Shown here: piece by piece, positions 5,257-24,330 of the stretch | Layout: each line of letters begins with the position of its first letter | How positions within the stretch are numbered: position 1 is the first letter of the stretch | Source: a virus | Length of the DNA stretch: 24,330 nucleotides | Virus genome (UHGV): UHGV-0242784 | Strand: one strand, 5' to 3' | Made by a program: the position numbers and the translations under genes | The notes under the pieces: generated by a model | What the model saw: the letters and a program-made list of their open reading frames with translations, nothing else | Database searches by the model: none | What the model was told of the DNA's origin: nothing

Positions 5257-5535
5257 TATTGTGGTACTTTTTGTGGGAGTCATCCACTTACGCACTTTGT
5301 TTTGCTATGCCAGCAGTTAGCTTCTGCTGTAAAACTATTCATGCAGCAAACCTGCACTTCACCACAATGGTTAGCATACTTTTCCTGATTAAGTTATTGC
5401 CAAATATGCTGGCCATTGTTTCATGTATTGGACCTCCTTACTATTTATTAAAGAGATCCAATATTCACCACTCTGTCTGTATCTCCACTCAGGCATCAGC
5501 CTTCTTCGTTATCGTATACAGACAAACTATGAATT

Positions 5536-5751
5536 TTAATCAGTAATTATGACATTTGCTGCTGCAGGACCTTTAGCACCACTCTCTACAGAGAAGGTAA
5601 CCTTTTGACCTTCAAATAAGGTTCGATAATTATCATTCTGAATCGCAGAAAAATGCACAAACACATCTTTACTACCATCAACAGGAGAAATAAAGCCAAA
5701 ACCTTTATCAGCGTTAAACCATTTTACTAAACCAGTCATTTTATTTGACAT
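5536..5751 (-). CDS. cspB: Cold-shock protein, CspB-like
   Basis: [53 protein letters not shown]...: cold-shock domain; AT-rich leader region upstream. Confidence 0.9.
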
Positions 5752-6051
5752 TCTACATTCCTTAACTTGAGCCTTTCGGCATAAATGGCTTGTATAACAG
5801 AAACGACTTCGTACTTAATTGGAGAGACTCAAAGAAGGAATAAGTGAATAACACCTGAAATGAGAACTGCTTTAGTAAACTACTTCGTATATCGTCTGTT
5901 CTTCAAACCGACGCAATCATTAACGCATAGTTGAACATATGAAGCAATGTTTATTTTAGACATCCAGCCATCTTCAACCCCATCAAAAAACTATAGCTTT
6001 CTTCAGGAACGTGTGTATAGTGCGCCAAGTTATCAGTATTAAGGAATTTTT

Positions 6052-10796: not shown

Positions 10797-11290
10797 TAAG
10801 CCCCCACGTAATTCCCTGACAGATACCACTCTTCACCCGATGCAGCGCGCTTGCTGCTTTTCCGTAAGCACCGCTCACGACGCGCCAGAAAATTGTTTCG
10901 TTCTGGCTGGGAGTGGCTTTCACGGAATGCCGCCATCCACACGGTTGCAGCACGACGAAATAAGCCCCTGGACTCCAGTTCTTCAGCCTGGCGGGTCAGG
11001 CACAAAATCACCCGGGGATCGTTAGTGCCGACATAGAAATTGCGCACAGGTCTGGTTTCACGAACTGGTTGTGGTTCCGGCTCCTGCGCTCTCTCAGTCA
11101 GGCGCGGGAAATGTCTGCGTGTATCTCCTTCACAACGGTGAGCCACACGCCCGCTCTGACGTAACTTGCTTGCTGACTGCAGTACGCGCTGCCGTGAGTA
11201 ACCTGCAAAAGCATCCGCAATGTCTCCGGAAGTACACCCCGGATGGGCTTCAATGAATTTCTGAACGTCATTCAAAAGACTCATGCTCAC
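10796..11290 (-). CDS. Hypothetical protein (164 aa), basic C-terminal half
   Basis: ORF coupled to flanking genes by ATGA/TAATG overlaps; family not recognised. Confidence 0.55.
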   Translation of the reverse strand: MSMSLLNDVQKFIEAHPGCTSGDIADAFAGYSRQRVLQSASKLRQSGRVAHRCEGDTRRHFPRLTERAQEPEPQPVRETRPVRNFYVGTNDPRVILCLTRQAEELESRGLFRRAATVWMAAFRESHSQPERNNFLARRERCLRKSSKRAASGEEWYLSGNYVGA

Positions 11291-12228
11291 CCCCTGAATC
11301 CTGCCGGGATCTGGCTGTAGTCCACATTGTCGTAACTGGCTTTGAAGTACGGGTCTTCGCGTTTTTCTGTGTACGTGCTGATGGACGGCGATAAGCGCAG
11401 GGAAAGCTCATCCCATTTTTCCCGCAGCTTCGACGGGCTGAGCACGTTACGGCACCAGAACGGATCGCGGCTGATGCGGCTGTACATCTCGCAGATTTGT
11501 TTGTGAGTACGACCATCCTGCACACACATCAGGCGAATTTCGTTTGCCCAGGCTGTCCAGTTCGGTTCTTTGGGACGAACCACCTCGCCGTCACATTCGG
11601 CGGCCTGCTCGTACAGGGCGATGATTTTTTTCCAGAGCCACTGTGCGCAGGTCAAATCATCCTGCGTTCCCCACTGGCACTTTTTAGGGCTGAATACAAC
11701 CGCATCAGGATGGCGAGTTAAAAAATCCTGTTCAGCCGTCTGCGTGTCCGGTTGCGAAACGTCCGGACGAGAAGGTTTTTTATCTGACGGATCATATTTT
11801 GATTTTACTGACGGATCCCCGCCAGATTCTGACGGGTGAAAACCCGCTTTTTTGCCAGATTTCGACGCATCAAATTTTGACGGGTCAGATTTTGATGCGT
11901 CAGATTTTGACGGGTCAGAATCTGACAGTTGAGAAAATGCCGCGGCCTGAAGCTTCGCAACGTTAAGCTGATAAACATTCGACGCATTACGGTTACCCTG
12001 GCGACGCGCCTTACGCGTTAACCAGCCTTCTGCTTCCAGCCGTGCAATAGCCGTTCTGACGGTACTCATCCCCGCGCCAATCTGGCGGGCAATGGTTTCA
12101 ATCGATGGCCAGCACACACCTTCGTCATTACTGAAATCAGCCAGGCGGGCCATAATTGCCACACTGGATAATTTCATGCCTGACGCTGCGCAACCATCCC
12201 ATACATAGCCGGTTAATTTAGTGCTCAT
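11287..12228 (-). CDS. Replication initiation protein (N-terminal HTH; internal iteron-encoded SDPSK repeats)
   Basis: N-terminus (LSSVAIMARLADFSNDEGVCWPSIETIARQIGAGMSTVRTAIARLEAEGWL) resembles the HTH of phage/plasmid initiators; mid-protein repeat SDPSKSDASKSDPSKFDASKS is encoded by tandem DNA repeats. Confidence 0.75.
   Translation of the reverse strand: MSTKLTGYVWDGCAASGMKLSSVAIMARLADFSNDEGVCWPSIETIARQIGAGMSTVRTAIARLEAEGWLTRKARRQGNRNASNVYQLNVAKLQAAAFSQLSDSDPSKSDASKSDPSKFDASKSGKKAGFHPSESGGDPSVKSKYDPSDKKPSRPDVSQPDTQTAEQDFLTRHPDAVVFSPKKCQWGTQDDLTCAQWLWKKIIALYEQAAECDGEVVRPKEPNWTAWANEIRLMCVQDGRTHKQICEMYSRISRDPFWCRNVLSPSKLREKWDELSLRLSPSISTYTEKREDPYFKASYDNVDYSQIPAGFRG
11776..11930. repeat. Putative origin iterons: five tandem 15-bp repeats (consensus CAGATTTTGACGGGT, 11856-11930) plus related copies at 11784-11837, inside the replication gene
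   Basis: Direct reading: cagatttcgacgcat / caaattttgacgggt / cagattttgatgcgt / cagattttgacgggt / cagaatctgacagtt; arrangement analogous to ori-lambda inside gene O. Confidence 0.6.
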
Positions 12229-17585: not shown

Positions 17586-18205
17586 TGACCACATTTACCA
17601 ATAAAGAACTGATTAAAGAAATCAAAGAACGAATCAGCAGCCTAGAGGTTCGAGACGATATTGAGCGCCGTGCTTATGAAATTGCTCTGGCATCGCTGGA
17701 AGAGGAGCCGGTGGCATGGCTGCATTCAGACAATGGCTTAGGTATTCCGGCAATAACCAGGAGCAAAAACATTGCTGACAGTTGGTTATCAATGGGCTGG
17801 TATGTTCAGCCGCTATATATAGCCAAGCCAGTACTGGTGGTGCCAGATGCTCGTCCGTCTTTAAATAATGGCATAGTCGGTTTTGATGAAGGCTGGAACG
17901 CCTGCCGCGCCACCATGCTTCATGGTGCCAAACCTGTAAGCCAGACTTACAAGTTGAACAAGCTGTCGGGCAACTCTCCGGTAACTCAGGATGGTTGGAT
18001 AAGCTGTAGTGAGCGAATGCCGAACGATAAACAGTATGTTTGGTGTTGGGGTAAGTCTTACGGCTGGACTGAGTGCGATACCTTCGAAGGGTATTACGAT
18101 TGGTCGAGAAACAAATGGTGGGCAGTTACAGACGATGGGGAAGAACCGGCATCGAAAGTAACCCACTGGATGCCGCTACCGGAGCCACCGCAGGAGGTGA
18201 AGTAA
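17585..18205 (+). CDS. DUF551-domain protein (206 aa)
   Basis: C-terminal WISCSERMPND...WAVTDDGEE...VTHWMPLPEPP matches the DUF551 signature as I recall it; start coupled to the upstream stop (TAATG). Confidence 0.65.
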   Translation: MTTFTNKELIKEIKERISSLEVRDDIERRAYEIALASLEEEPVAWLHSDNGLGIPAITRSKNIADSWLSMGWYVQPLYIAKPVLVVPDARPSLNNGIVGFDEGWNACRATMLHGAKPVSQTYKLNKLSGNSPVTQDGWISCSERMPNDKQYVWCWGKSYGWTECDTFEGYYDWSRNKWWAVTDDGEEPASKVTHWMPLPEPPQEVK

Positions 18206-18399
18206 TGAACAACTTAATGACAACTAAACAAGTCGCCGACTTCTGTGGTGTTTCAGTATCGACCGTTCTTCGCTGGAACAGCGTAAACAGGAGAACTGGC
18301 CAGAAATACAGGCCTGACTTTCCAGATCCTGATATTAAATCCTGCCCAAATAAATGGGCATCACGCAAGATATACAGGTTTGCTGGAGTTATTGAGTGA
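18205..18399 (+). CDS. Small HTH protein, excisionase/AlpA-like (64 aa)
   Basis: ATG 18205 overlaps the upstream stop (TAATG) with SD AGGAGGTGA; HTH segment TKQVADFCGVSVSTVLRW typical of the Xis/AlpA family. Confidence 0.6.
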   Translation: MNNLMTTKQVADFCGVSVSTVLRWNSVNRRTGQKYRPDFPDPDIKSCPNKWASRKIYRFAGVIE

Positions 18400-18601: not shown

Positions 18602-21600
18602 TCACACGCTGCGCCTTCGAGAATATTCATTTAATCGCTGATAACGAACATCTTGCTCCAGTTGTGGAGCAGCTTGAACAATTTGAAGCAAGCATTGCCC
18701 CAACTCTCGAGGCCCCCAGTGTTGTTCGGCAATCACGGCATTCAGCAGGGATAGAGCGTCCGCAGGATATCGGCTGCAAATATCTGATTCTAGCAAAAGG
18801 CGAACGTCGTAGCTAAGGTGTTCGAGCGGTTGCAGCCAGTCCTGCACCACTGCCAAAGCCGCCGGAAATTCACCTCGGGCAGCAATCACCATACGAGTCA
18901 ACGATTCGGATATGCGTGGGGTGGCCAAGTTGCGGGACTTTGGCCAAACCTGTTGCCAAAATGGCTGGACACGATTTTTCCAATACTCCTCGCGCTGATC
19001 GCCCGCACCTTCAAGTGCCTGGTATAACGCCTGCGCGGCTACCTCCAGACCTTCTTGTGGAAGAGCACTAATTGCCGTTCGGAACTCCTCCACGGTATAT
19101 CCCTCGGTAGGGCCCAGAGCTGCATAAGTCAGGAAAGTAGCGAATTGCTGCCGGTGCTCGCCAAGATCAGAATAGTGATTGGCGCTCTCCAAAAAATCTG
19201 ACTTGAAAGCTATCAGCAACGGTTCATACAGGCGTGGCGACCAGAGGAAGCCTTCCCACACAGCTTTTGCTTCGACGGGATTACTCCAAGCAAACAAGGG
19301 CAATAGATACTGTTCGGTCCAAGGTCGATCTACGCGAAAAAATGCGATCAGCCGCGACCCCAGCAACACCCGACCATGGCGGAATAGCTCTATCTGTACA
19401 TTACACAATTTGGTGAAAAGTGTTTTCAATTCAACAGGAAGCAAATCATTGTCATTCGGGTTCTGTTTGAACCATAGGGTGATCAGTGATTGCGTGACAT
19501 GCCCAATGGGATGATTGATCGCCGTAGAAACAGGATCATAGGTCTCAATTCCGTTTCGAATGGTGCTAGACTCTGGGCTTGTTTCTATCATCAGAACCCG
19601 ACGACAAAGGGCCAGTAGAATCTCCTCGTGGCAGAGGATGGTCTTCGAAGCCTCCTCCATCCACCAAGTGACAGCGTGGGAAATCTCCTGAAGTACTGCG
19701 TCAGGCATGTCAAGCACCAACGGTGCGGCGTACCGCCACGAACGCAAAATCATCCCTGGTTCAGCCCAAGTCTGCAGAGCTTCACGCCACCGACCAACAG
19801 GCCACACATCATCTTGTGATAGTTTACTTAACGCATACAGACTGTGAAAAAAGCGCGTACGGCAAACATCACTCCAAGTGTCCTCATAGAAAGGCAGTCT
19901 TTCTGGCATAGGCTTTGCGAGCCATTGCACTAATTCCTGCCACTTACGGGGCGCAATGTCGACATCTATATTCTCCTCGAAGCCTGGATCACCGGTTCCG
20001 CTCATCCAGTGAGAGAATTCATCACGCTCGTTGGTTGCCAGTTGCCATTTTGGGTATGCTGTGGATATTTCCGTCAAACGTGTAGCCGCAGACTCTCCCA
20101 AAACAAGGCCCGCTCCCCTGAGCTTCGCTAGACACAACCAGACGGAATGAGCCACCAAATAATGCCACCTGTCTGCTTCCAAATTATCCTCGTACATCTC
20201 GCGCGGAGGCCCTGCCAAGATAGCAGTTTCCAGACGCTCTTGTGCAATTCCTGTCAGATGTCGTCCCTGCAAAACAAACAGTCTGAATACCTCTCGCCCA
20301 GTATCCGTGGCCCACAACCACCATGAACCGTCCTCTAACAACCAATTAACCCACCGCTCAGGTGGTATGCAGTTGTCTTGGCTTGCGGCAAACAGTGCCA
20401 GACGTTTGAAGGTGGGATATGGCAACTCAAACCAATTCTGAGCAATGCGCGTGGCCTGATCGCTGTCTTTGGCTCGAACGGCTAACCATGAATCCCGAAG
20501 TAATTCAATCAGGCTCACCCAATCGCGGAACCCCCGGTTCTGCCAGTGCGGAGTGATGGACGGCAAATCCCAATGCGAGCGGTCGTGACGATCGTCGGAC
20601 TCTCCCAACTCCCGCAACAAGTCCAGTGCATCACGCAACAACTGCTGAAAATCTTCCAACAGGTATGGCAAGGACGATTTCCATGACTCGTCAGCAAGGT
20701 CGAACAGGGTTGAACGTACGTAATCAGCAGTCAGCACCAGCTCCCAATCCACCAATTGCTTGATTCGCAAGGGTTCATCAGTGCTGCTCGAATCGTCTTC
20801 ACTATAGCGAAACGGCCGCCTCAACATAACCTTGGGAGAAAGCAACTCGCGTAACTCCAAGCGCAATGTAGTCGTCAAGCCTTCATTCTTTAAGCGGTTT
20901 TGCCAACGATACAAATCCAGGTTCTGCAATGGCGATTTCACACGACCACTAAGCAGAAGCCGCCATAAAGTAGACATAGGTGGACCAGGAATAGCCAGGG
21001 GGGAATGCAAGAGAATTTCATCTAACTCAAAAGTCTTACGCTCCCGCATCAGTGCTGCTAAGCGATCTAGTTCGCTCTCAATCAGAAACATCCAACGGTC
21101 GTGTATTTGTCCGCCGCGTTCAGCAATCCATATGATCAACCTAGGGTCGCCCAGATAACGAACTAGCCAACGGGCTATATGGGACATTACGTCATCCCAT
21201 TTGCTAGCACTGACACATCCAGAAACCAGCGACATCTGCAGGGCCAGCTCATAGGGCGCAGGACGCTGAACCAGACTGAATCGGAGTTTCGGGTCAATTT
21301 CGACATGCGGAGATACACAAAAGCGTGGCAGATCGCTGTATTTAAATCGTTCGTCCGAGAAAGCTTTCAATAACCAATCCAGCGGCGGTGCAGGATTGAG
21401 TTCCGCAAAGCGTTTTGCTGGTAAACCTGATTTATCTGACAAGGCCCACAACATCCGACCAACGAAATCGTCCTGACGAGTGCTGTCCTGCGGGCGGGCC
21501 AGAGCATGTTTGACGACTATAGCCTCTTTGCCCTGTATACCATCTCGATAAGTATCTGCCCAAGCGTGCAACGTTTGATGCAGCACTGAATGATCAGTGG

Positions 21601-22429
21601 AGCCCGCCGGTACGGTGTAAAGGATAGGAGTGACCCCTTTGGCCTCCCACTCGATGGCTTTCCGGTGCTCCTGCCCCGGCTCACACTCCCCCAGTGCCCA
21701 TACTTGTGGTGTGACTTCACCGAGCCTCCGATCTGCTGCAAGCGCATCCATCATGTAGCGCAGTACCGGGTCGTTGATGCTGTAGCCAACGAAGCAGACC
21801 ACATAGTTACGAAATAACTCACTCACAAAGCGAGCTGCCCAACGCTCAGTGAGATAAGCCAAGCCAAAGTCACCGCTGGTAACAACCAGACGATTCAGGG
21901 CAGTATCATCCGCCTTTTCCGGTAACAGCCCATGCAGGTATACAAGTCCATCCCAGCGGCTGTTTTTTGGAATTGGCAGCATCGGCGCTACATAGGCCTG
22001 AAAAGCCTGGCCTGTACGTTTAGCTGCCACATGAAAGAGACGGTCAAAGTTGGTAGTGACCAATCGAAGGGCACCCTCGCGGCTACGGGCTAAACGTAAC
22101 AGCGCCGCCTGAGTATCAATAGCGCCCCTACGACGGAGCTTTGGCTTAAGGGCTTTTTCCAACGCGCGTCGGACGGCTATACGCTGCCCTGGTAAGCGCC
22201 GTTCCAGCAAATCTAATGTGCCGTCAAATTGCCCACGCTCGAAAACCTCACGCTCAATTTCTGAAAGTGTTGTTCCGTTCCTCTGGTAAATTAGTTCTAC
22301 CAACCCTTTGAAACCAGGTAAACCAGCAGGGTAGGAAATGCCTGCTCCACAGAAGAACACAACGCGCCCTTCCTCGTGCGCCTGCAAAAGCTCATCAGGA
22401 ATATCAGGGCCGTTGGTAATGAATTGCAT
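18602..22429 (-). CDS. Large SIR2-domain protein (1275 aa): N-terminal defence-type SIR2 NADase-like domain + ~1000-aa helical C-terminal region (DSR-like candidate)
   Basis: Uninterrupted 3.8-kb ORF with SD AGGAGG 7 nt upstream; SIR2 motifs in the first ~250 aa: VVFFCGAGIS, VTTNFDRLFH, VYLHGLL, VCFVGYSINDPVL; no Walker A (GxxxxGK[ST]) found by eye. Confidence 0.85.
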   Translation of the reverse strand: MQFITNGPDIPDELLQAHEEGRVVFFCGAGISYPAGLPGFKGLVELIYQRNGTTLSEIEREVFERGQFDGTLDLLERRLPGQRIAVRRALEKALKPKLRRRGAIDTQAALLRLARSREGALRLVTTNFDRLFHVAAKRTGQAFQAYVAPMLPIPKNSRWDGLVYLHGLLPEKADDTALNRLVVTSGDFGLAYLTERWAARFVSELFRNYVVCFVGYSINDPVLRYMMDALAADRRLGEVTPQVWALGECEPGQEHRKAIEWEAKGVTPILYTVPAGSTDHSVLHQTLHAWADTYRDGIQGKEAIVVKHALARPQDSTRQDDFVGRMLWALSDKSGLPAKRFAELNPAPPLDWLLKAFSDERFKYSDLPRFCVSPHVEIDPKLRFSLVQRPAPYELALQMSLVSGCVSASKWDDVMSHIARWLVRYLGDPRLIIWIAERGGQIHDRWMFLIESELDRLAALMRERKTFELDEILLHSPLAIPGPPMSTLWRLLLSGRVKSPLQNLDLYRWQNRLKNEGLTTTLRLELRELLSPKVMLRRPFRYSEDDSSSTDEPLRIKQLVDWELVLTADYVRSTLFDLADESWKSSLPYLLEDFQQLLRDALDLLRELGESDDRHDRSHWDLPSITPHWQNRGFRDWVSLIELLRDSWLAVRAKDSDQATRIAQNWFELPYPTFKRLALFAASQDNCIPPERWVNWLLEDGSWWLWATDTGREVFRLFVLQGRHLTGIAQERLETAILAGPPREMYEDNLEADRWHYLVAHSVWLCLAKLRGAGLVLGESAATRLTEISTAYPKWQLATNERDEFSHWMSGTGDPGFEENIDVDIAPRKWQELVQWLAKPMPERLPFYEDTWSDVCRTRFFHSLYALSKLSQDDVWPVGRWREALQTWAEPGMILRSWRYAAPLVLDMPDAVLQEISHAVTWWMEEASKTILCHEEILLALCRRVLMIETSPESSTIRNGIETYDPVSTAINHPIGHVTQSLITLWFKQNPNDNDLLPVELKTLFTKLCNVQIELFRHGRVLLGSRLIAFFRVDRPWTEQYLLPLFAWSNPVEAKAVWEGFLWSPRLYEPLLIAFKSDFLESANHYSDLGEHRQQFATFLTYAALGPTEGYTVEEFRTAISALPQEGLEVAAQALYQALEGAGDQREEYWKNRVQPFWQQVWPKSRNLATPRISESLTRMVIAARGEFPAALAVVQDWLQPLEHLSYDVRLLLESDICSRYPADALSLLNAVIAEQHWGPRELGQCLLQIVQAAPQLEQDVRYQRLNEYSRRRSV

Positions 22430-22611: not shown

Positions 22612-23835
22612 TCATTTCGAGCCTGAACGAGTACAAGTAACAATCGATTCAACTCTCTCCCACCATGCCTGGTAGGCTTTACGCTGTTCTTCTAGATAAT
22701 CACTCTTGTCATAAACTTGCCATACACCTGGCAGTTTATGACCGAGCATTATTTCAGCAATATGAGGCGCAGTAAGATCAGAAAAGTTTGTTCGTGCTGT
22801 TCGTCTCAAATCATGAAGAGACCAATGAGGAAATTGATACCCCAAACGCCGCCATGCGTACTGCATTAAATTGTAAGGTAGCGACTGCAATGATGTCCGA
22901 CCAACTGGTTCCCTGCTTCCTTCCTTAGTAAAAAGCATATCGGAACCGTTGTTCATAGAGATAACGTATTTTATAAGCTCTTCAACCGGTTCAATAATGG
23001 GCCGCTTTAGCGGTTCGCCTGTTATATCCCCTGTCTTATGTCGTTCTGGTGGTACAGTCCATATTTTATTAATGAAATCAAAATCGTCCACCTTGGCAGT
23101 AATTAGCTCTGAACTACGGCAACCAAAATGCAGCAATAGTTTAATGAAGGCCCGGTATTTAGGAACCATTCGAGAACCATCGATCGCAGCATAAAGGATT
23201 TTAATTTCATCATGTGTCAGAAACCGTTTCTTCTGACCTTTACGGATATCCATATCTTTACCCGTGATATCCGACAGCGGGCGAGTTTCAATGAGCTTTC
23301 TCTTATACGCCCAGACATGGGCCTGCTTTGCGTTAATTAGCAATCGGTCTGCTATTGCTGGAGTCTTAGTGCTAAGAGGCTCCAGGACTTCTAACCAATC
23401 ATGCAATGTAGCTGCATCGTGAGGGATATTCCCGATTTTAGAGAACAGGTGCAGCTCAAACGAGCGGAGTATCTGTTCAGAACCTTTTTTATTTTTTACA
23501 CAATATGCTTCATACCAAGCACGGATCACAGATTCTACCGTCATGGCTTCAGTAGCTTTACGTTTTTCTGCCAGCTTGACCAATCGTGGATTGCGGTTTG
23601 ACTCGAGTTCACCACGAAGACGGATAACTTCTTCTCTGGCCTCTTTTAGTCCAGTTGCCGGGTAAGTTCCGATATCAAGACGCTCACCTTTCCCCGCCCA
23701 CTGATAACGATATTGGAACACTACGCGACCTTTCGGTGATACTCTAACAGACAGACCATCACGATCGGATTTAACCAAAACCTTATCACGTTCCTTTCCA
23801 ACAACTGAACGCAACCACGCATCAGACAGCGCCAT
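22612..23835 (-). CDS. int: Tyrosine recombinase / integrase (P4-type, 407 aa)
   Basis: Catalytic residues in the expected order (R ... HDLRRT ... Y near the C-terminus); N-terminal arm-binding-like region; located at the prophage end next to the host junction. Confidence 0.9.
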   Translation of the reverse strand: MALSDAWLRSVVGKERDKVLVKSDRDGLSVRVSPKGRVVFQYRYQWAGKGERLDIGTYPATGLKEAREEVIRLRGELESNRNPRLVKLAEKRKATEAMTVESVIRAWYEAYCVKNKKGSEQILRSFELHLFSKIGNIPHDAATLHDWLEVLEPLSTKTPAIADRLLINAKQAHVWAYKRKLIETRPLSDITGKDMDIRKGQKKRFLTHDEIKILYAAIDGSRMVPKYRAFIKLLLHFGCRSSELITAKVDDFDFINKIWTVPPERHKTGDITGEPLKRPIIEPVEELIKYVISMNNGSDMLFTKEGSREPVGRTSLQSLPYNLMQYAWRRLGYQFPHWSLHDLRRTARTNFSDLTAPHIAEIMLGHKLPGVWQVYDKSDYLEEQRKAYQAWWERVESIVTCTRSGSK

Positions 23836-23844
23836 TACTCACCT

Positions 23845-24032
23845 TGTACAAATAACAAAAAACCTCTGCTGTTTTGTACATTATGTACAAGCACATGTAC
23901 AGATTTTTGATGAAAGTAACCTGATCAATTTAAAGTTACATGAAAGAATTTTCAATCAAAGAAATCACATAACATCATGTTATTAAATGAGTTATATAAT
24001 TATCACTCAATTAATTGAAAGGATTTTGAAAG
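23845..24032. promoter_or_regulatory. AT-rich int upstream / attL arm region with four TGTACA palindromes (23845-23901) and four TGAAAG direct repeats (23911, 23941, 24016, 24027)
   Basis: Repeats read directly; TGTACATTATGTACA (23875-23889) is a perfect 15-bp palindrome; TGAAAGAATTTT (23941-23952) and TGAAAGGATTTT (24016-24027) are near-identical. Confidence 0.45.
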
Positions 24033-24055
24033 AGTAAAAGAGCTTTTATTTGGGC

Positions 24056-24130
24056 TTAATTATTGGGGTGAGAAATAATGGCAAAAGTGCGGCGCTTCGC
24101 CACCTCTTGCAAATAAGGAGACAACGTCAT
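24056..24130 (-). pseudogene. prfC: Truncated 5' end of host prfC (release factor 3): 22 native codons then phage-derived N-N-stop
   Basis: Minus strand from 24130 translates [24 protein letters not shown]; I recognise [22 protein letters not shown](DAGKTT) as the RF3 N-terminus; sequence turns AT-rich and phage-like after CACCC (~24065). Confidence 0.75.
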
Positions 24131-24227
24131 AATTCTTTCTTCTTGAGTAAGCGGCATCGCGCCGCGCTTGTTGAAAACGAAAAATTGCGGCTATTTTACC
24201 CATCAACGGGGGGGAGGCAATCAGTGT

Positions 24228-24330
24228 TTACACAGGAGCTGCTCCAGTTCGTGCAACGAAGAAACGGTCCAGGTGGGCGCGATGCCACACCGTAGGCATT
24301 CCCCCTACTGTTTCATGGGCGCCGTTATTC
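24228..24330 (-). CDS. Possible 3' end of the host gene upstream of prfC (partial, continues right of window)
   Basis: Open minus-strand frame from the window edge to a TAA at 24230-24228, ~97 bp upstream of the prfC start; identity not recognised. Confidence 0.3.
   Translation of the reverse strand, partial: NNGAHETVGGMPTVWHRAHLDRFFVARTGAAPV

Follow-up and report, generated by a model that had tools for sequence, protein, structure and literature searches.

Within a 24,330-nt stretch of viral DNA (UHGV virus genome UHGV-0242784, hereafter called the window), a short open reading frame on the minus strand starts like release factor 3 (RF3) and then breaks off close to an integrase gene. A first-pass annotation, made from the sequence alone, had proposed that a prophage is integrated inside the 5' coding region of prfC, which it took to be an essential gene, and that either the phage must reconstitute a functional prfC at its other end or the host carries a disrupted RF3. 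The locus raises the question of what this stub is and of what became of the host gene that it was cut from. The answer that we consider very likely is that the stub marks the attL site of a lambdoid prophage that resembles the Cdt-I phage in its integration module and carries the Dsr1 defence gene, and that a phage-borne mimic of the prfC start rebuilds the gene at attR.

The junction inside prfC and its core

The open reading frame runs from an ATG at 24130 to a stop codon at 24058-24056 and comprises 24 codons plus this stop. When its product was compared with RF3 of E. coli K-12, residues 1-22 turned out to be identical, such that the N-terminal peptide match survives alignment, and two asparagine codons and the stop then follow. 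At the DNA level, the window equals K-12 from inside yjjG, across the 90-nt intergenic region and up to nt 65 of prfC, beyond which the alignment with K-12 shows an abrupt switch to AT-rich sequence; the K-12 alignment agrees here with the first-pass annotation, which had described 22 RF3 codons followed by AT-rich phage sequence and a stop. The first 65 nt of the stub and the 156 nt upstream of it are 100% identical to the E. coli yjjG-prfC region, and the match of 24131-24286 to yjjG and intergenic DNA (100% identity, E = 4e-73) excludes chance. The yjjG stop codon is found at 24221-24223, and the longest open reading frame that includes the stub starts at an in-frame ATG at 24157, the annotated K-12 start being 24130. 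A promoter scan returned a candidate native prfC promoter by consensus match only (TTGCCT-16-TAAAAT, 24220..24193). RefSeq genomes annotate the stub as a partial pseudogene. No tRNA or other RNA gene was found at the junction and the window is devoid of any tRNA, and the att alignments described below likewise place the attL-side boundary between host and prophage in prfC rather than in a tRNA, as had been proposed. The features of the locus are collected in Table 1.

Table 1. Position of the features at and around the prfC junction (window coordinates unless a locus number is given)
Feature	Position	Strand	Basis or remark
Excisionase-like gene (recombination directionality factor)	18205..18399	+	weak HTH_17 and Xis_Gifsy_1 matches
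dsr1, anti-phage sirtuin defence gene	18602..22429	-	NF041818 and PADLOC; 1275 aa
Tyrosine integrase gene (int), putatively of the prfC-targeting (SXT-cluster) type	22612..23835	-	Pfam domains; 398/404 residues identical to cdtI Int
Int-proximal phage arm of attP (P' arm)	23836..24065	-	collinear with attP of cdtI and Ayreon
Displaced native prfC 5' end (24-codon stub)	24056..24130	-	last 2 codons and stop phage-derived
14-bp core / crossover region	24066..24079	-	ATTATTTCTCACCC; common to attB, attL, attR and attP
Native yjjG-prfC intergenic region	24131..24220	-	K-12-identical; includes native ribosome-binding region
3' end of host yjjG (pyrimidine 5'-nucleotidase)	24221..24286	-	100% identical to E. 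coli yjjG; yjjG annotated in NZ_CP104371.1
Int-xis slot in relatives	L089:1570-3702; L090:1518-3707; L008:4250-4969		anti-phage defence genes, co-oriented with int

The 100% identity to E. coli extends to 24286, and the final 44 nt of the window (24287-24330; ACACCGTAGGCATTCCCCCTACTGTTTCATGGGCGCCGTTATTC) leave the yjjG sequence. A search of 5426 E. coli genomes and of the PLSDB plasmids gave no match for these 44 nt, and it is possible that they stem from a contig-end artefact, from a rearrangement or from an insertion in yjjG. With these 44 nt, the host flank departs somewhat from an ordinary one.

The exact crossover, which comparison with an uninterrupted prfC had been expected to reveal, was located by three-way (attB, attL, attR) and five-way (with attP) alignments that define a 14-bp core. 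This core corresponds to codons I18-I19-S20-H21-P22, directly before the DAGKT P-loop of RF3, the P-loop being the G1 motif of translational GTPases. In the five-way alignment, the attP of phages cdtI, 2H10 and Ayreon reads, base for base, as the phage arm of attR, then the core, then the phage arm of attL, and the same 14 bp are annotated as a "duplication due to insertion" in Stx2c prophage records (for example LC727881). Altogether, these observations support that the region 24056-24130 is attL, the int-proximal boundary between host and prophage in the 5' coding region of prfC.

Both arms of attP carry clusters of a TGTACA motif. In the int-proximal arm, four such motifs lie within 57 bp (23845-23901), out of seven sites in the 24 kb of the window, and the other attP arm also has four (L004:1545-1670, attR arm). 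The distance is ~10-60 nt from the int start for the first cluster and ~15-130 nt from the surrogate prfC start for the second, both clusters lying upstream of the gene concerned and overlapping candidate promoters; we infer that they are candidate arm-type Int-binding sites. One of these promoters, found by a promoter scan of the int-proximal arm (TTGAAA-17-TAAATT, 23955..23927), may be that of int. Two LexA-box-like palindromes, CTGTGTTTGTATACAG and CTGTATGAATAAACAG, were also seen outside the window, on the attR arm (L004:1478-1530), upstream of a divergent dinI-like gene and ~150-200 nt from the rebuilt prfC start; this palindrome segment is absent from phage Ayreon.

The other junction and the rebuilt prfC

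Neither the rest of prfC nor a second copy of the core was found within the 24,330-nt window, which carries no attR. Because the window stops in the lysis/csp region of the prophage, the far junction was taken from E. coli 2021CK-01784 (NZ_CP104371.1), whose ~50-kb prophage matches window positions 1-24286 at 99.89% identity, and the reconstitution was then read in ~690 other genomes. In NZ_CP104371.1, an intact PGAP-annotated prfC of 1587 nt is found directly after the dinI-like gene. Its first 21 codons are derived from the phage and are followed by the native gene from codon 23 onward, such that the rebuilt RF3 is a protein of 528 aa, one residue shorter than the native protein and differing from it only in residues 2-7; from residue 23 on, it shows no difference from K-12 RF3. 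Residues 2-7 of RF3 vary between species in any case, as seen in the native stubs at homologue loci. Thus, by proxy for the window, the far end of the prophage lies in prfC with an in-frame start provided by the phage, and of the two outcomes that had been put forward, the intact fusion at attR of the 99.89%-identical prophage and of ~690 genomes speaks for a prfC rebuilt by the phage and not for a disrupted RF3.

The phage-derived 5' end of the rebuilt gene pre-exists in free phages: in cdtI, 2H10 and Ayreon, the core ends a 24-codon prfC-mimic open reading frame that is located ~220 nt upstream of int. The context of its start codon, AATTATGAC, is the same in the phage mimic and in the host prfC. 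In the nine codons before the core, encoding EVAKRRTFA, phage and host differ at 8 of 27 nt and all these differences are synonymous (GTG/GTA, AAG/AAA, CGC/AGA twice, ACT/ACC and GCC/GCA). Simulations showed that the peptide is kept in a single one of 2,000,000 random sets of 8 substitutions (~5e-7). Since 8/8 differences are synonymous, the EVAKRRTFA peptide must be under selection, and this constraint, together with the kept start context, argues that the rebuilt fusion is translated and selected.

Two other readings of the mimic were tried and rejected. In one of them, the copy starting with MTSLLAAE would be the native one and the stub in the window would be the phage copy; this does not hold, as the stub and its 156 nt of upstream DNA belong to the E. 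coli chromosome and as free phage genomes contain the MTSLLAAE copy. In the other, the surrogate would be conserved merely as core-binding DNA for Int, which does not fit with 8/27 nucleotides differing while the peptide is unchanged.

A strong sigma-70 promoter was not found on the attR phage arm, where the best candidates match 8/12 positions; among them, a weak -35/-10 candidate (TTTTCT-17-CATAAT) ends 16 nt before the ATG of the rebuilt prfC. Since every adjacent phage gene lies on the other strand and since SXT is reported to supply a promoter at the prfC site, we infer that the rebuilt prfC is probably transcribed from a promoter in the ~220-bp phage arm.

In the model that we favor, an integrase of the SXT cluster would have recombined the phage attP with an attB located in codons 18-22 of the E. 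coli prfC, through the core ATTATTTCTCACCC. As the sequences show, the crossover parts the native promoter, the ribosome-binding site and the first 22 codons from the remainder of prfC, leaving at attL a stub that is closed by a phage stop two codons past the core. At the other end, the attP mimic of the prfC start (the AATTATGAC context and 21 codons) fuses in frame to codon 23, the predicted attR order being dinI-like gene, ~220-bp arm, ATGACAAGCCTTTTGGCCGCAGAGGTAGCGAAAAGAAGAACCTTTGCA, core and prfC from codon 23 onward. Transcription from the native prfC promoter may now continue past the stub into int and dsr1; such a read-through is possible because no terminator-like site was found between the stub and these two genes on the minus strand in a scan of the window.

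We then looked at how frequent this configuration is, using 5426 complete E. coli genomes. The attL junction was detected in 700 of them and the phage-type attR in 692, so that ~13% of complete E. coli genomes carry the prfC-integrated element, while 5424 of the 5426 have at least 80% of prfC in one piece. The prfC-integrated configuration is common and stable, and prfC is not lost.

The integrase, the prophage and their relatives

The integrase gene starts 220 nt past the stop codon of the stub and reads away from the junction, confirming the distance and orientation given by the first-pass annotation. Its product contains the domains PF13356 Arm-DNA-bind_3 (DUF4102; 58 bits), PF22022 Phage_int_M and PF00589 Phage_integrase, all above cutoffs. 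In an alignment of 13 sequences, no variation is seen at the catalytic residues R204, K232, R344, H366 and Y375, H341 being conserved at 90% or more, and all are present in the window protein. The protein is 99% identical to Int of phage cdtI. Smyshlyaev 2021 placed the cdtI phage integrase and IntSXT in one cluster, all members of which insert at prfC, and on the basis of this identity and of the published tree, the window Int most probably belongs with the IntSXT cluster.

Integrase homologues of 50-85% identity are widespread. We examined 80 homologue loci drawn from species-representative genomes and found a same-strand prfC stub ending with ISHP upstream of int in 36 of them; such a stub is present at all loci where the integrase identity is 49% or more and the upstream sequence is long enough. 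The stubs are located ~196-235 nt upstream of int (125 nt at one locus), they always break after His-Pro, just before the P-loop, and they are usually closed by a stop within a median of 4 codons. Hosts bearing them include Pantoea, Xenorhabdus, Serratia, Pseudomonas, Acinetobacter, methanotrophs and Burkholderiales. On a contig of a Rheinheimera metagenome-assembled genome (CAYTIQ010000001.1; loci L055 and L056), two integrase homologues lie 49.4 kb apart with different prfC stubs. This pair resembles two elements in tandem at prfC, where the surrogate brought by the first element would have been displaced and now forms the second stub, and it is comparable to the tandem arrays that SXT/R391 ICEs can form at prfC.

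The window comprises the half of a ~50-kb lambdoid prophage that reaches from int to the lysis genes. Going inward from the junction, its genes encode the integrase, Dsr1, an excisionase-like protein, yfdP-S-type early proteins and a LexA-like CI repressor, followed by an O-like replication protein, a methyltransferase, a RusA-like protein, a Q-like antiterminator, Csp proteins, lysozyme and Rz. In NZ_CP104371.1, the prophage goes on with lambda-like terminase, head, tail and tail-fibre genes, an invertase and the dinI-like gene. Taking the window and the annotation of this 99.9%-identical prophage together, CI/Cro, O-type replication, Q, lysis and head/tail genes are found in lambda order, and relatives of the prophage have been isolated as free phages.

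The dsr1 gene occupies a variable cargo slot between int and xis, in the same orientation as int and as the native prfC promoter. Its product matches the NCBIfam equivalog NF041818 over its full length (2055 bits for a cutoff of 1400) and the PADLOC Dsr1 model (2729 bits), and has an N-terminal SIR2 domain (PF13289 SIR2_2). In relatives, this position is occupied by BovA (Borvo, CHAT domain) in cdtI and Ayreon and, in 2H10, by a 239-aa protein that is unassigned. The excisionase-like gene is the last of a leftward early operon and converges with dsr1-int; at its position, cdtI and 2H10 have a 195-nt gene annotated as "excisionase".

Two other sequence features of the window were noticed. The minus strand has two RNA thermoregulator elements of the cspA type (Rfam RF01766, 114 and 157 bits), at 2227-2642 and 5473-5912; they belong to phage-borne cold-shock genes flanking the lysis cassette, and they account for a 200-nt direct repeat (2286-2485 / 5552-5751). 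At 11856-11930, the O-like replication gene (11287-12228, minus strand) contains a repeat of 15-nt period, with four 30-nt copies that overlap one another and code for a reiterated SDxSKSD peptide; these may be iteron-like origin repeats of the kind that lie within lambda O.

Integration into prfC with replacement of the 5' end has been published before, both for SXT and for closely related phages, and RefSeq contains near-identical prophages. Phages cdtI, 2H10 and Ayreon have an integrase region of 95-97% nucleotide identity, which lies mid-genome in them. The free phage cdtI (NC_009514) shares with the window the attP layout, the 14-bp core and the 24-codon prfC-mimic open reading frame, as well as the order dinI-like gene, attP, int, cargo, xis and DUF551, and the Cdt-I converting lambdoid phage is described as inserting at prfC (Asakura 2007, as cited in PMC8138268). 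It differs from the prophage of the window by the presence of cdtABC beside dinI and of BovA downstream of int, where the window has Dsr1. Long-tailed Stx1, Stx1a and Stx2c phages occupy the same site in STEC O103:H2 and CC119 (PMC2323221; PMC10132054; PMC12831630), with an int region of 94.5-99.9% nucleotide identity to that of the window, whereas the prophage of the window has csp genes and no stx between Q and the lysis genes. One of these studies described a Stx1 phage in prfC with the same N-terminal replacement, reported that prfC is not essential and stated that expression of the rebuilt gene is unknown (Ogura 2007, PMC2323221). The essentiality attributed to prfC by the first-pass annotation is contradicted by this report and by the delta-prfC strains in use.

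The same strategy is known from conjugative elements. The 5' end of prfC is also where SXT/R391 ICEs integrate, and they replace the N-terminus of its product (Hochhut & Waldor 1999, as described in citing papers). This family is marked by a conserved conjugative-transfer backbone and by an Int ~99% identical to IntSXT. Since the element of the window is a phage, with terminase, portal, capsid and tail genes and without transfer genes, it lies outside the SXT/R391 ICE family, although it uses an SXT-like att strategy with a related integrase. The SXT core presumably overlaps ATTATTTCTCACCC. The Rac prophage in ttcA is another element that replaces the 5' end of its target gene. The dusA-specific islands, for instance IMEVchUSA3 (PMC8409611), likewise restore the reading frame of their target, to which they bring an altered N-terminus together with a new promoter; contrary to the element of the window, they have other target genes and unrelated or distant integrases.

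Alternative readings and what the junction means

Besides preserving prfC, integration could amount to a reciprocal promoter swap with a regulatory meaning, int and Dsr1 being expressed specifically in lysogens and RF3 being placed under a phage-arm promoter. We regard this as unlikely. If it were true, a constitutive host prfC promoter would drive lysogeny-specific expression of a defence cargo, RF3 with an altered N-terminus would be driven from a region that contains the candidate Int-binding TGTACA motifs and adjoins the LexA boxes, and the quality control of translation termination would be subtly reprogrammed by the state of the prophage. A related possibility is that integration restores prfC in structure but silences it, the promoter being lost and lysogens tolerating the absence of a dispensable RF3. 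Such silencing would agree with the weakness of the promoter-like matches on the attR phage arm, with a non-essential gene whose expression in lysogens was called unknown (Ogura 2007, PMC2323221) and with the listing of prfC as disrupted in another study (Bobay 2013, PMC3603311). The surrogate 5' end is nevertheless constrained at the protein level (8/8 synonymous differences, ~5e-7 by chance), its start-codon context is kept, it is conserved in 3 free phages and 692 genomes, and a working promoter is reported for SXT at the same site; such constraint and conservation would be senseless if the fusion were never expressed, and we find a silent prfC quite improbable.

That prfC is truly truncated, either as no compensating sequence exists or as the far end was deleted in the source strain, is highly improbable. 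The far end does lie outside the window, and prophage decay and deletions are common, but the fusion is intact in the 99.89%-identical prophage, and a near-full-length prfC is missing in just 2 of 5426 genomes, compared to ~700 genomes with attL. Even less credit, practically none, can be given to the stub being an assembly or rearrangement artefact or a chance resemblance of peptides: although the last 44 nt of the window match no E. coli sequence, the junction recurs without a single base difference in 700 complete genomes that were assembled independently, it is exactly predicted by the attP of free phages, and the insertion duplication is annotated in Stx-phage records. The reading that accounts for these observations remains an attL site in prfC with the gene rebuilt at attR by the phage mimic.

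A widely cited prophage survey counted prfC among the core genes "disrupted" by integration (Bobay 2013, PMC3603311). This label is misleading for prfC because the junction data show a rebuilt gene, and such counts probably reflect gene calling or annotation at the altered 5' end. For annotation, a short partial prfC pseudogene beside an integrase gene denotes an occupied att site and not a broken translation factor, and prophage surveys should not score prfC as "disrupted". More generally, the locus is a clean and very common case in which an element aims at the best-conserved part of a gene, here the codons before the GTPase P-loop, and brings along a selected mimic of the start of its target. 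This start-mimic strategy is not new in kind and is common to phages and SXT-type resistance ICEs across many Proteobacteria.
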